Positions 34,680 to 36,257 of a DNA stretch of 64,000 nucleotides are shown here, in pieces (position 1 is the stretch's first letter; each line of letters opens with the position of its first letter). Position numbers and translations under genes: made by a program. The notes beneath the pieces were generated by a model. The model was not told the DNA's origin, made no database searches, and worked only from the letters and a program-made list of their open reading frames with translations. Origin of the DNA: a virus (Duplodnaviria; Heunggongvirae; Uroviricota; Caudoviricetes); the IMG/VR virus record IMGVR_UViG_3300046786_000604, positions 12,364-76,363 of that record; one strand, given 5' to 3'.

Positions 34680-34918
34680 GACCACCTCAATATAAACCAA
34701 GTTTTGTATTCTTCTGATTCAAATGTTACGACATGTTTAGTTAAAGAAGCATGAAATTGTTTTAGTTCCTGATTGATTATTTCATAACGATATTTTCTAT
34801 CGAGTTTCACAAACTGGCGGAAATGACCATTATTTGCTATGACATAAGAGTAGAAGTTCCGCCATGGGTTAGAATCTAACGTATTAATTATGATTGTTCG
34901 ATTGTTCTCTGATTTCAT
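34676..34918 (-). CDS. WF-LRWS family small protein
   Basis: ...FESEEYKTWFILRWS; 5' end overlaps the nadV 3' end. Confidence 0.5.
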   Translation of the reverse strand: MKSENNRTIIINTLDSNPWRNFYSYVIANNGHFRQFVKLDRKYRYEIINQELKQFHASLTKHVVTFESEEYKTWFILRWS

Positions 34919-36257
34919 CGAATAGCCATTCAGTTATTAATTTACCATCTTCATAAATATCAAATAATTCATCTTTTTTTGTATCGTCGAGTAAATCACT
35001 GTAGTATTCACCATTTTCATCTTTAAATAATGTGACCAATCCTTTTTTACTTGACTTACCTTGGTCAGTAATTGGATCTTTGAATACACCAACCCATTCA
35101 CCATTGATATAAGCAGCTGAACATTTCATTGCCCATTTGTTGGTATCACGGTCTACTTTTTGTAGTAATGCACCGCCCATGCCAAATGCTACGTTATCTG
35201 CTGAAAAGCCAGCTTTAGTGATAGCTTCTAAGATATCACGGATAGAAGTCCAATTAATACCATCACCTTGTAATACTCTTACATGGTTAAGGACTTTATA
35301 ACCTTTATTATTGATATAGAATCCAAATTGTTCTTGCAGGATTTGTAAACATTGTAGAACTACGGTAGCTGGATCACCAGAATCTGGACGGATTACAAGT
35401 GTAGCGCCACTATCAATAATGTGTTGTCTTAGTTCTTTACCCCATAATGACCGACAAGCATTAAAAATATCATAGCTATCGGAAACTACAGCAACAACTG
35501 AACCTGGTTTGGCGAACTGTTTAAGCATGTTTCTGTATGCTTCAACTTCATTTTCTTTACCCCAGCTGGTAATAGTAGAATGTTCTGCAGCTGGAACACT
35601 ATAACCAGCCATATCAGCACCATAATACTTACGGGCAAACATAAGGGCCGCCAATGTATCAGTACCTTTGAAGTTAACAAGGTGTGATGCGCCACCGATT
35701 CCGGCAGATTCTAAACTAGATACACCACGAGCGCCAAAATCATGAAGCTTAAAGTCAATTGTACTTGGATCACCAGTTTTCTCTAAGTATTGCGTAATTA
35801 ATTGTTTAATGTACCAACTTTGTGTAGCAACAGTGGTTGGATACCAAATTGCTCTTAATAATGCAGTTTCAACCCAGGTTGTTAACCAATAGCATTGTGG
35901 ATCAGTATTAACAATTGTTGCTAATACATTTCTTACAGGAATGACTGAACCTTCTTTAGCCGCTCTAATTTTTAATGGCAAGTATCCTTTGTGTTTGTCC
36001 AAGATATACTGCCAACCTTCACGATTAAATGGTACACCATGGGCTTTACAAATAGCATCCGCTTCATCGATGTCTTCTTGGGTGATTGGTTTGGATAAGA
36101 ACTCCTTAATAAAGGCTTGTAAGCCGAACATAACGGTGTGGTCATATACCCCACCACGACTTTCGATATAGCTATAAACATATTCAGTCCCAGCTGGGTA
36201 CTGTTTGAACATTGAACATTTGTATGAATCAGTATTTAAGATAATTGATAATGACAT
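34884..36257 (-). CDS. nadV: nicotinamide phosphoribosyltransferase (Nampt/NadV)
   Basis: 457 aa; NTDSYKCSMFKQYP N-terminus and conserved Nampt blocks throughout; AAGGAG RBS. Confidence 0.8.
   Translation of the reverse strand: MSLSIILNTDSYKCSMFKQYPAGTEYVYSYIESRGGVYDHTVMFGLQAFIKEFLSKPITQEDIDEADAICKAHGVPFNREGWQYILDKHKGYLPLKIRAAKEGSVIPVRNVLATIVNTDPQCYWLTTWVETALLRAIWYPTTVATQSWYIKQLITQYLEKTGDPSTIDFKLHDFGARGVSSLESAGIGGASHLVNFKGTDTLAALMFARKYYGADMAGYSVPAAEHSTITSWGKENEVEAYRNMLKQFAKPGSVVAVVSDSYDIFNACRSLWGKELRQHIIDSGATLVIRPDSGDPATVVLQCLQILQEQFGFYINNKGYKVLNHVRVLQGDGINWTSIRDILEAITKAGFSADNVAFGMGGALLQKVDRDTNKWAMKCSAAYINGEWVGVFKDPITDQGKSSKKGLVTLFKDENGEYYSDLLDDTKKDELFDIYEDGKLITEWLFDEIREQSNNHN

Follow-up and report, generated by a model that had tools for sequence, protein, structure and literature searches.

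A conserved two-hairpin leader RNA precedes the unlinked NAD+ salvage genes nadV and natV of an uncultured phage

What, if anything, holds together two genes of one pathway that lie more than 20 kb apart on a phage genome? The question is raised by a stretch of 64,000 nucleotides (hereafter the window) from a virus of the class Caudoviricetes, positions 12,364 to 76,363 of IMG/VR record IMGVR_UViG_3300046786_000604. A preliminary description of this sequence pointed to two of its open reading frames (ORFs) as a complete NAD+ salvage pathway of the type known from phage KVP40: nadV, encoding a nicotinamide phosphoribosyltransferase (Nampt), and natV, encoding a bifunctional nicotinamide mononucleotide (NMN) adenylyltransferase (NMNAT)/Nudix protein. 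We find this pair to be correctly identified and ordinary. What the description missed is a hairpin between each promoter and its gene, in leaders that are homologous to each other. Taken together, the data are well explained by a KVP40-type pair of the NAD+ reconstitution pathway 2 (NARP2), expressed from early promoters and furnished with a shared leader that most likely gives post-transcriptional co-control; we hold this joint reading with good confidence.

Structure of the leader

Each leader is about 55 nt long and consists of a first hairpin (HP1) with the tip G-AUAGA-C, a short linker, and an AU-rich second hairpin (HP2) before the AUG (Table 1). Across leaders HP2 has a 5-nt loop formed by the Shine-Dalgarno (SD) sequence, either GGAGU or GGAUU; between the end of the 3' arm of this hairpin and the AUG there are 5-8 nt. 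Folding single leaders to minimum free energy gave the same two hairpins each time. HP1 was also found upstream of nadV in all six relatives whose upstream regions were compared (NadV 76-98% identical); its stems vary yet remain complementary, and the tip G-AUAGA-C is invariant.

Base pairing was compared with that in shuffled sequences. HP2, which had played no part in the choice of sites, showed 91.4% pairing against 58.9% in shuffles, a value reached by none of 500 of them; it had 20 double-change cells against 6.9 and a covariation score of 0.82 against 0.17, or at most 0.22 with the partners slid. A first covariation count for HP1 was biased, since its sites had been picked for having stems, and it was redone on sites picked regardless of pairing. 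For this, 2.9 million viral contigs (IMG/VR) were scanned with the pattern GATAGAC-N12-30-TAAGGAGTTTA, which specifies neither pairing nor coding sequence. In 36 of the 42 distinct HP1 segments from this pattern scan, HP1 was 80.6% paired, against 48.8% in shuffles (0 of 500), and the same 36 yielded 107 double-change cells against 35 and a score of 0.77 against 0.18 (at most 0.26 when slid).

Several other readings of HP1 and its loop sequence were considered and rejected. GATAGAC is not a general motif of this DNA, as it shows no enrichment over the whole window (8 copies against 5.7 expected); it is meaningful only inside the leader hairpins. HP1 does not behave as a plain terminator, because the U run that follows it is lost in most relatives. 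Nor does it behave as a palindromic DNA operator: its arms vary around a fixed centre, the reverse of the pattern that a dimeric DNA-binding protein would call for.

The leader does not appear among catalogued RNA families. A search of the whole window against Rfam 15 at gathering thresholds, which included two classes of NAD+ riboswitch, gave no matches; positions 36150..36450 gave noise only at E values up to 10, and three leader-bearing loci (L015, L016 and L023) gave none. Nothing relevant was found in the searchable literature on the heptamer or on an RNA motif upstream of phage nadV. The nearest known counterparts are the NAD+ riboswitches of class I (nadA motif) and class II (pnuC motif), which are likewise cis-acting RNAs in the 5' leaders of NAD genes, and in one phage the leader described here does precede nadA. 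It differs from both in consisting of two simple hairpins and in having no Rfam 15 match.

Distribution and gene specificity

The viral scan returned 76 matches with a downstream ORF of at least 40 amino acids (aa), and 60 of these ORFs encode either NadV (38) or NatV (22). Among the 16 others, 12 are copies of a single terminase leader with a weak HP1, and 3 appear to be chance matches (upstream of a Dam methylase, a tail fibre and a capsid-like protein). A 108-aa protein with the motif HGMLCTxNHTDGCxW was found twice behind a strong natV-type two-hairpin leader (L070 at 417, L108 at 7755) and may also belong to the regulon. Loci that carry the leader are L001-L004, L009-L013, L015, L016, L020, L023, L025-L027, L042 (phage B23) and L045-L124, together with the bacterial loci L150-L225.

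Within each locus of 15-21 kb, holding about 50 genes, the hairpin precedes nadV or natV only, with two exceptions. In L015 the leader also stands before a gene for quinolinate synthase (Pfam NadA, 281 bits). In L016 it stands before a radical-SAM gene; an ORF nearby was read by eye as a macrodomain protein, which Pfam did not confirm. The same specificity is seen in the window, where hairpins with an SD loop and a following ORF occur only at nadV, at natV and at one MORN-repeat gene, the last having a duplicated natV leader. The cultured Synechococcus phage B23 carries the leader on both genes, the natV copy having an A-U closing pair, and phage RsoM2USA has HP2-like hairpins only. From these observations we conclude that the leader is a shared, structurally conserved and NAD-gene-specific element; support for both its structure and its specificity is good, and no counterpart was found in Rfam or in the searchable literature.

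The leader is not confined to phages. The same pattern was used to scan one genome per prokaryotic species and returned 80 loci, 17 of which precede a NadM/NatV homologue, most of them with both hairpins clear. In all 17 the downstream nadM product is 40-48% identical to NatV of the window, and in those with enough downstream sequence nadM is followed directly by nadV, whose product is 55-61% identical to NadV of the window. The bacteria concerned are Thiothrix/Thiolinea, relatives of Sulfurovum, and two metagenome-assembled genomes of Pseudomonadota. One of the Thiothrix matches lies on a complete chromosome of 4.5 Mb, where the neighbouring genes are uninformative as to a prophage context.

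A separate clade of phage NadV proteins (51-56% identity; loci L017, L019, L022, L036, L037 at about 9930-9990, and L018/L030) has a different conserved hairpin, located between natV and nadV. It takes the form UUCCC-AGUGA/AGAGA-GGGAA or GUUCUC-ACUGA-GAGAAC, followed by ACGGAGAGUAU and the AUG, and may represent a second leader type.

NadV and NatV

The ORF proposed as nadV is present and fits both the domains and the family model expected of a Nampt. Its product has the Pfam domains NAMPT_N and NAPRTase and scores 669 bits against NCBIfam model NF006629 (cutoff 405). In the comparison with PDB entries, the Nampt of Xanthomonas campestris (PDB 7yqo) gives 620 bits, human NAMPT 445 bits and the three weakest entries 241-265 bits. 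These three are all labelled nicotinamide phosphoribosyltransferase; as the labels do not distinguish the two enzymes, it is our own assumption that they are structures of phage Namat, the related enzyme of the NARP1 pathway. NadV is 44% identical (377 bits) to its orthologue in KVP40, whose pair of enzymes has been characterised biochemically, and about 60% identical to the bacterial (Xanthomonas) enzyme, and is thus closer to the latter. Judged from its sequence, it is a full-length Nampt and much nearer to characterised Nampt than to NARP1-type Namat.

Alignment to human NAMPT shows that all known catalytic and substrate-binding residues are kept; their roles follow the NAMPT literature. 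The phospho-histidine H247 corresponds to H226 of the window protein, and D219, which confers nicotinamide specificity, to D200. The remaining correspondences (human residues given first) are D16 and Y18 with D10 and Y12; F193 and R196 with F174 and R177; R311 and D313 with R290 and D292; G353 and D354 with G331 and D332; G383 and G384 with G361 and G362; R392 with R370; and K400, K415 and K423 with K378, K393 and K401. In several other phages NadV is split by an apparent intein or homing-endonuclease insert (L069, L116 and L117, where NadV is 771-779 aa long, and L025-L027, at 10001-12286). The insert sits exactly within the catalytic RPD|SGDP motif, in the region of R311/D313 of human NAMPT.

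The claim of a bifunctional NatV was likewise borne out, both domains being found in the predicted ORF (Pfam CTP_transf_like, then NUDIX at 61.6 bits). The NadM/Nudix models of NCBIfam match the protein over its whole length, and the best of them, NF003786, scores 386.2 bits, below its equivalog cutoff of 397. NatV aligns end to end with the NadM-Nudix protein of Synechocystis (PDB 2qjo, 307 bits) and over its full length with KVP40 NatV (37% identity, 209 bits). We regard it as a divergent predicted member of the NadM/Nudix family, an assignment based on its alignment, over the full length, with NadM-Nudix proteins of solved structure. In the H-x-x-H motif, which reads H-N-A-H, both histidines (H18 and H21) are invariant, and the (S/A)TxIR motif is present as NATDIR. 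The Nudix box, GGFLDQNELIIDGAVRELKEETKI, conforms to GX5EX7REUXEEXGU, with R249, E250, E253 and E254 invariant.

Gene order and promoters

The preliminary description noted that the two genes are about 23 kb apart and that each has its own consensus promoter. Both statements are accurate: the two genes share a strand, natV being the upstream one, their measured distance is 23,203 bases, and each gene follows a promoter of the form TTGACA-N16-TATAAT that matches the consensus at 12 of 12 positions and carries the TG extension. Neither feature is unusual. Separate promoters are ordinary because perfect ones occur throughout this early region; the window holds 16, all oriented with the genes and most of them TG-extended, against about 0.1 expected by chance on our own estimate. 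The set includes a divergent, back-to-back pair, and several of the promoters overlap inverted repeats.

The separation is also ordinary, because the gap in KVP40 is larger and gaps within the lineage of the window phage vary from 3 to 23 kb. In KVP40, natV (KVP40.0162, 94507-95532) and nadV (KVP40.0264, 138214-139707) are 42.7 kb apart, in the same order and on the same strand. KVP40.0211, annotated as nadR, was considered as the natV gene, which would have made the gap 23.6 kb, and was rejected since it shows no BLASTP similarity. Among relatives of the window phage the gap is 3.1 kb in the P0014 contig and 3.9 kb in L011 (NadV of both 76% identical to that of the window) and 9.5 kb in L002 (78%), compared with 23.2 kb in the window itself. 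The order of genes is retained in the lineage, with natV followed at varying distance by a protein of about 300 aa (in most relatives), nadV and, further on, an SPFH protein. The additional DNA between natV and nadV in the window contains, besides many small ORFs, genes for an ADP-ribosylglycohydrolase (ARH), a seryl-tRNA synthetase, a BCS1-like AAA ATPase and a polynucleotide-kinase-like P-loop kinase. The usual arrangement in more distant phages has natV directly upstream of nadV. The likely history is that of a nadM-nadV operon split by insertions in a hyperplastic early region.

The NARP2 pathway

NARP2 was defined as the Nampt and Nmnat pair of KVP40 (Osterman et al., bioRxiv 10.1101/2024.02.11.579819). 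It is carried by about 1.1% of phages, the Nmnat is co-present in 94% of phages with this Nampt, and no phage has both NARP1 and NARP2 (bioRxiv 10.1101/2024.02.11.579819). The window phage has a NadV of the Nampt clade and an NMNAT homologue on the same contig and strand, and no member of the PRPS-like (Adps) family was found among the ORFs of the window, which cover 64 kb of the genome. At the sequence level the proposal of a KVP40-type pathway holds, with the catalytic residues of both proteins intact; the enzymatic activity and the role against host defences would follow from the work on KVP40.

If the enzymes act as those of KVP40 do, NadV would form NMN from nicotinamide and host phosphoribosyl pyrophosphate (PRPP), the N-terminal domain of NatV would convert NMN and ATP to NAD+, and its Nudix domain would split ADP-ribose or NAD(H). 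Both genes are predicted to be early genes, each transcribed from its own strong sigma-70 promoter, and the pathway would keep NAD+ up during infection, including in the face of NAD+-depleting defences.

The window pair resembles that of KVP40, reportedly treated by Lee et al. in 2017, in its two enzymes and their domain architecture, in being encoded by early genes of a T4-like phage, and in having natV upstream of nadV on one strand with the two unlinked. KVP40 differs in lacking the GAUAGAC/SD-loop leader and in carrying nadR and pnuC as well; the window phage differs in the divergence of the two proteins given above and in the addition of the ARH. Compared with NARP1, there is homology between Namat and NadV, which share the same fold and catalytic histidine (PMC12774641). 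The window protein, however, scores with true Nampt, Adps is not seen in the window, and the predicted pathway uses PRPP and requires a separate adenylyltransferase. Bacterial nadM-nadV operons provide a further comparison. NatV aligns along its whole length with the NadM protein of one such bacterium (Synechocystis; the other solved example is that of Francisella, PDB 2qjt), and the operons of the Thiothrix/Sulfurovum group have nadM then nadV behind the same two-hairpin leader. In the phage, by contrast, the operon is split, each gene has its own promoter and copy of the leader, and the first NMNAT motif of NatV reads M-R-A.

ADP-ribosylglycohydrolase and NADAR

The preliminary description also reported an ARH and saw in it, together with nadV and natV, a heavy investment in NAD and ADP-ribose metabolism. 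The ARH itself is present (PF03747, 262.6 bits). Its best solved relative is Tri1 (PDB 6dre, 243 bits), and, as in the DraG/Tri1 ADP-ribosylarginine hydrolases, the metal-site motifs TDDT and DDADT are kept. It differs from those enzymes in scoring below the NCBIfam equivalog cutoffs for both (Tri1 343 against 490, DraG 190 against 337), and no partner ADP-ribosyltransferase was found among the ORFs of the window.

Within the window this investment amounts to three genes only, and no further NAD or ADP-ribose gene families were found among its remaining ORFs. The link of ARH to the pathway does have independent support from elsewhere: distant homologues (about 30% identity) lie 0.8-7 kb from nadV, on its downstream side, in 7 of 30 other IMG/VR loci (L017, L018, L021, L022, L030, L036 and L037). 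ARH genes are rare in phages, being found in 61 of 50,697 records, and are reported from about 5% of jumbo phages (PMC9503650). Jumbo phages that carry ARH and also NatV include Serratia phage BF, the Erwinia pEa_SNUABM phages and Citrobacter phage Ci1. In the lineage of the window phage ARH is an accessory gene of the natV-nadV block, absent from the shorter intervals of the closest relatives seen. One of these close relatives, L011, has in its place a NADAR gene (195-701) about 4.4 kb upstream of natV, in agreement with the association of NADAR noted by Iyer et al. It is plausible that removal of ADP-ribose marks is functionally coupled to the rebuilding of NAD+, and the occurrence of ARH beside nadV and of NADAR near natV points to a wider phage module combining the two.

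The window and its other genes

The window has a G+C content of 34.6% and about 155 ORFs, mostly small; no tRNA genes were found in its 64 kb. A near-identity DNA search of the phage collection with the window gave no matches to catalogued phages, and the phage is known solely from metagenome contigs: the window proteins are found on a 77.1-kb metagenome contig of the Joint Genome Institute, and contigs with relatives measure up to 367 kb. One virion protein is 50% identical to its counterpart in the cyanomyovirus S-RIM32, one ORF matches the Gp23 family, and GIY-YIG/NUMOD3 homing endonucleases were seen in relatives. These features, together with the array of sigma-70 early promoters, indicate that this is probably an uncultured, large, T4-like aquatic phage.

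Directly upstream of nadV, in most relatives of the lineage and absent from some, is a gene for a 320-aa protein. It had no matches in Pfam, NCBIfam or the PDB sequences, and a Foldseek search of the PDB with its AlphaFold model (predicted local distance difference test 88, predicted template modelling score 0.90) also gave none; the family has more than 200 metagenome members. The AAA_33 kinase that recurs between natV and nadV in relatives was considered as a nicotinamide riboside or NAD kinase and rejected, since its matches are to polynucleotide kinases only (Pnkp1, PDB 4xrp; TIGR04075). In the window it overlaps the BCS1-like AAA ATPase. An ORF neighbouring the pair has a weak SLATT-domain match. 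The seryl-tRNA synthetase gene is full-length and of a kind uncommon in phages. The SPFH/Band-7 and Bax-inhibitor-1 family proteins are conserved throughout the lineage as syntenic neighbours of nadV and natV.

Dozens of ORFs of 60-120 aa end in approximately E-E-x-x-x-W-F-x-L-R-W and then an overlapping stop/start ATGA. They are paralogues, a large family occupying the hyperplastic regions; one member overlaps the end of nadV. Four paralogous MORN-like repeat genes form a cluster, and in this region cassettes comprising a promoter and a leader have been duplicated. The duplication suggests cassette-mediated recombination similar to that of the PeSL elements of T4-type phages. Two sets of tandem repeats occur within coding sequences, one of them in a virion structural gene.

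Table 1. Positions of nadV, natV, their promoters and leaders, and other features of the window
Feature	Coordinates	Strand	Evidence or remark
nadV, nicotinamide phosphoribosyltransferase (Nampt), 457 aa	34884..36257	-	ORF, Pfam, NCBIfam, PDB matches
nadV promoter, TTGACA-N16-(TG)TATAAT	36323..36350	-	12/12
nadV HP1, AGCCACUG-AUAGA-CGGUGGCU	36284..36304	-	G+C-rich; then a U run in the window
nadV HP2, UAAUUAA-GGAGU-UUAAUUA	36257..36275	-	SD in loop; 3' arm runs into AUG
natV, NadM-type NMN adenylyltransferase/Nudix (ADP-ribose pyrophosphatase), 338 aa	59461..60477	-	ORF, Pfam, NCBIfam, PDB
natV promoter, TTGACA-N16-(TG)TATAAT	60526..60553	-	12/12
natV HP1, UAAUAAAG-AUAGA-CUUUAUUA	60501..60521	-	AU-rich stem; same tip as nadV HP1
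natV HP2, ACUAUA-GGAGU-UAUAGU	60478..60494	-	Abuts AUG
Duplicate of natV HP1 before MORN-repeat gene	61283..61303	-	47-nt leader 100% identical to that of natV; repeat family D19
Third, degraded natV-type HP1 copy, before ORF 61316..61615	61638..61656	-	Repeat families D18, D19
Perfect promoters (examples)	16938/16951, 21342, 23434, 27582, 33488, 40489, 47935, 51444, 52631, 53601, 54449, 61689, 63250		
Divergent back-to-back promoter pair	16910-16979		
ARH (DraG/Tri1-like), 304 aa from ATG	43436..44350	-	PF03747; longer GTG-started ORF to 44425
320-aa protein	36357..37319	-	
BCS1-like AAA ATPase (phrog_7485) with overlapping polynucleotide-kinase-like AAA_33 kinase	38550..40357	-	
AAA_33 kinase	39878..40357	-	
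117-aa ORF	40486..40839	-	Weak SLATT-domain match
Seryl-tRNA synthetase	40836..42110	-	Seryl_tRNA_N and class II core
SPFH/Band-7 protein	31574..32422	-	
Bax-inhibitor-1 family membrane protein	52634..53299	-	
ORFs ending in E-E-x-x-x-W-F-x-L-R-W	17275..29283 (+), 34019..34724, 50642..55949 (-)		Includes 34676..34918
Four MORN-like repeat genes	60543..63200	-	69-nt (23-aa) repeats
Duplicated promoter-plus-leader cassettes	60482-60609, 61618-61745		89% identity; 47-nt leader 100%
72-nt tandem repeats	6294..6533		Near-perfect; in virion structural gene
18-nt tandem repeats	12749..12856		Within ORF 12698..13342

Discussion

The leader probably came with a bacterial-type nadM-nadV operon and was retained or copied as insertions split that operon. 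Its most likely effect would be joint post-transcriptional control of the now unlinked nadV and natV. A fixed loop on a freely varying stem argues that the loop is recognised by a factor acting in trans, and since the element occurs in bacteria as well as phages, always with NadM/NatV, this factor should be NadM/NatV itself, a common cellular component or a small molecule. Candidates for reading the HP1 loop are NatV/NadM, another protein, or a metabolite of the pathway, and in the putative mechanism the leader would bind either NadM/NatV or the metabolite directly. The Nudix domain of NadM/NatV is related to the ADP-ribose-sensing domain of NrtR. We tentatively propose that the two-hairpin leader is a previously undescribed cis-regulatory RNA dedicated to NAD genes (nadM/natV, nadV and nadA) of bacteria (Thiothrix and Sulfurovum relatives) and many aquatic phages, perhaps linking translation to NAD+ status; we put this somewhat short of an even chance.

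Its main rival, which we consider rather unlikely, is a passive leader inherited along with the genes, in which HP1 would serve to stabilise the 5' end or be what is left of a terminator, and HP2 would act as a translation enhancer that presents the SD sequence, with no sensing. Hairpins at the 5' terminus are known stabilisers of mRNA, the predicted 5' end of the transcript falls at HP1 or close to it, the U run behind HP1 in the window is terminator-like, and few bases are invariant. A structural hairpin, however, needs no invariant AUAGA loop, and this loop has been kept over NadV identities of 55-98%, in bacteria and phages, while the stems were free to change. The loss of the U run in most relatives and the confinement of the element to NAD genes, among about 50 genes per locus, also speak against a passive role. 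Other alternatives concern the gene pair. NadV might be a NARP1-type Namat, joining ADP-ribose (ADPR) pyrophosphate to nicotinamide, with Adps encoded outside the window and NatV unrelated to its function. Nampt and Namat are indeed homologous, the Pfam domains are common to both, and only 64 kb of the genome are visible. The scores of NadV to the Xanthomonas and human enzymes nevertheless far exceed those to the putative Namat-type chains, Namat is reported to share about 36% identity with each of the two Nampts (PMC12774641), no PRPS-like gene was found among the window ORFs, and the NatV partner is present, as in nearly all Nampt-bearing phages, none of which combines NARP1 with NARP2 (bioRxiv 10.1101/2024.02.11.579819). 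We regard a Namat as very improbable.

There remains the purpose of the pair. NadV and NatV could provide general metabolic support, topping up NAD+ for the NAD-using reactions of the phage in the course of a large, fast infection, rather than counter a defence; this was the original reading of KVP40 nadV and natV, and it is compatible with the anti-defence reading. The genes lie among early genes with strong promoters, near seryl-tRNA synthetase, the polynucleotide-kinase-like kinase and the SPFH protein, which are related to host takeover or translation, and in bacterial genomes near-identical pairs with the same leader are ordinary nadM-nadV operons. NARP2 also raises NAD+ in the absence of any defence system (bioRxiv 10.1101/2024.02.11.579819, Discussion). 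On the other hand, knock-in and co-expression experiments with the KVP40 pair showed it to overcome type I Thoeris as well as other systems that deplete NAD+ (bioRxiv 10.1101/2024.02.11.579819), and neither a phage ADP-ribosyltransferase nor an NAD-dependent ligase was found in the window. Metabolic support in place of counter-defence is a real possibility, and one that we lean against.

Several observations weigh against a NARP2 pair under common leader control. KVP40 and phage ACP17 have no such leader, and therefore the pathway does not require it. In the window a natV-type leader also stands before MORN-repeat genes, where it arrived by recent duplication. The leader is a small element in which few unpaired bases are invariant, and it could be a constitutive structure that stabilises the mRNA or enhances translation and senses nothing. 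The invariance of GATAGAC in both collection scans holds by construction; in the protein-anchored sets it does not arise in this way. Our view is of 64 kb, related contigs reach 367 kb, and genes for Adps (NARP1), NadR/PnuC or an ADP-ribosyltransferase could sit elsewhere on the genome. Finally, the first NMNAT motif of NatV (residues 10-21) reads MRAQPLHNAH where the canonical form is GRFQPFHxGH. The alanine of H-x-A-H is invariant across 18 of 18 aligned relatives, and the replacement of G-R-F by M-R-A belongs to an [M/L]-R-[A/G] variant common to several diverged members and the close subclade. Because this variant recurs in several diverged relatives, the motif looks like one under selection rather than in decay.

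Taken alone, the gene pair means one further uncultured phage among the roughly 1% of phages that carry NARP2, and is of little consequence. The leader may be of more interest. As a specific sequence tag, its motif offers a way of locating nadV and natV in metagenomes, and possibly new genes linked to NAD as well. If it acts as proposed, it would account for the coordination of genes that lie 3 to 23 kb apart, and NARP2 would be a self-adjusting countermeasure that comes on when a defence drains NAD+. Should the leader sense NAD+ status, it would represent a new regulatory class for NAD metabolism, and a phage counter-defence pathway would be feedback-controlled rather than constitutive.

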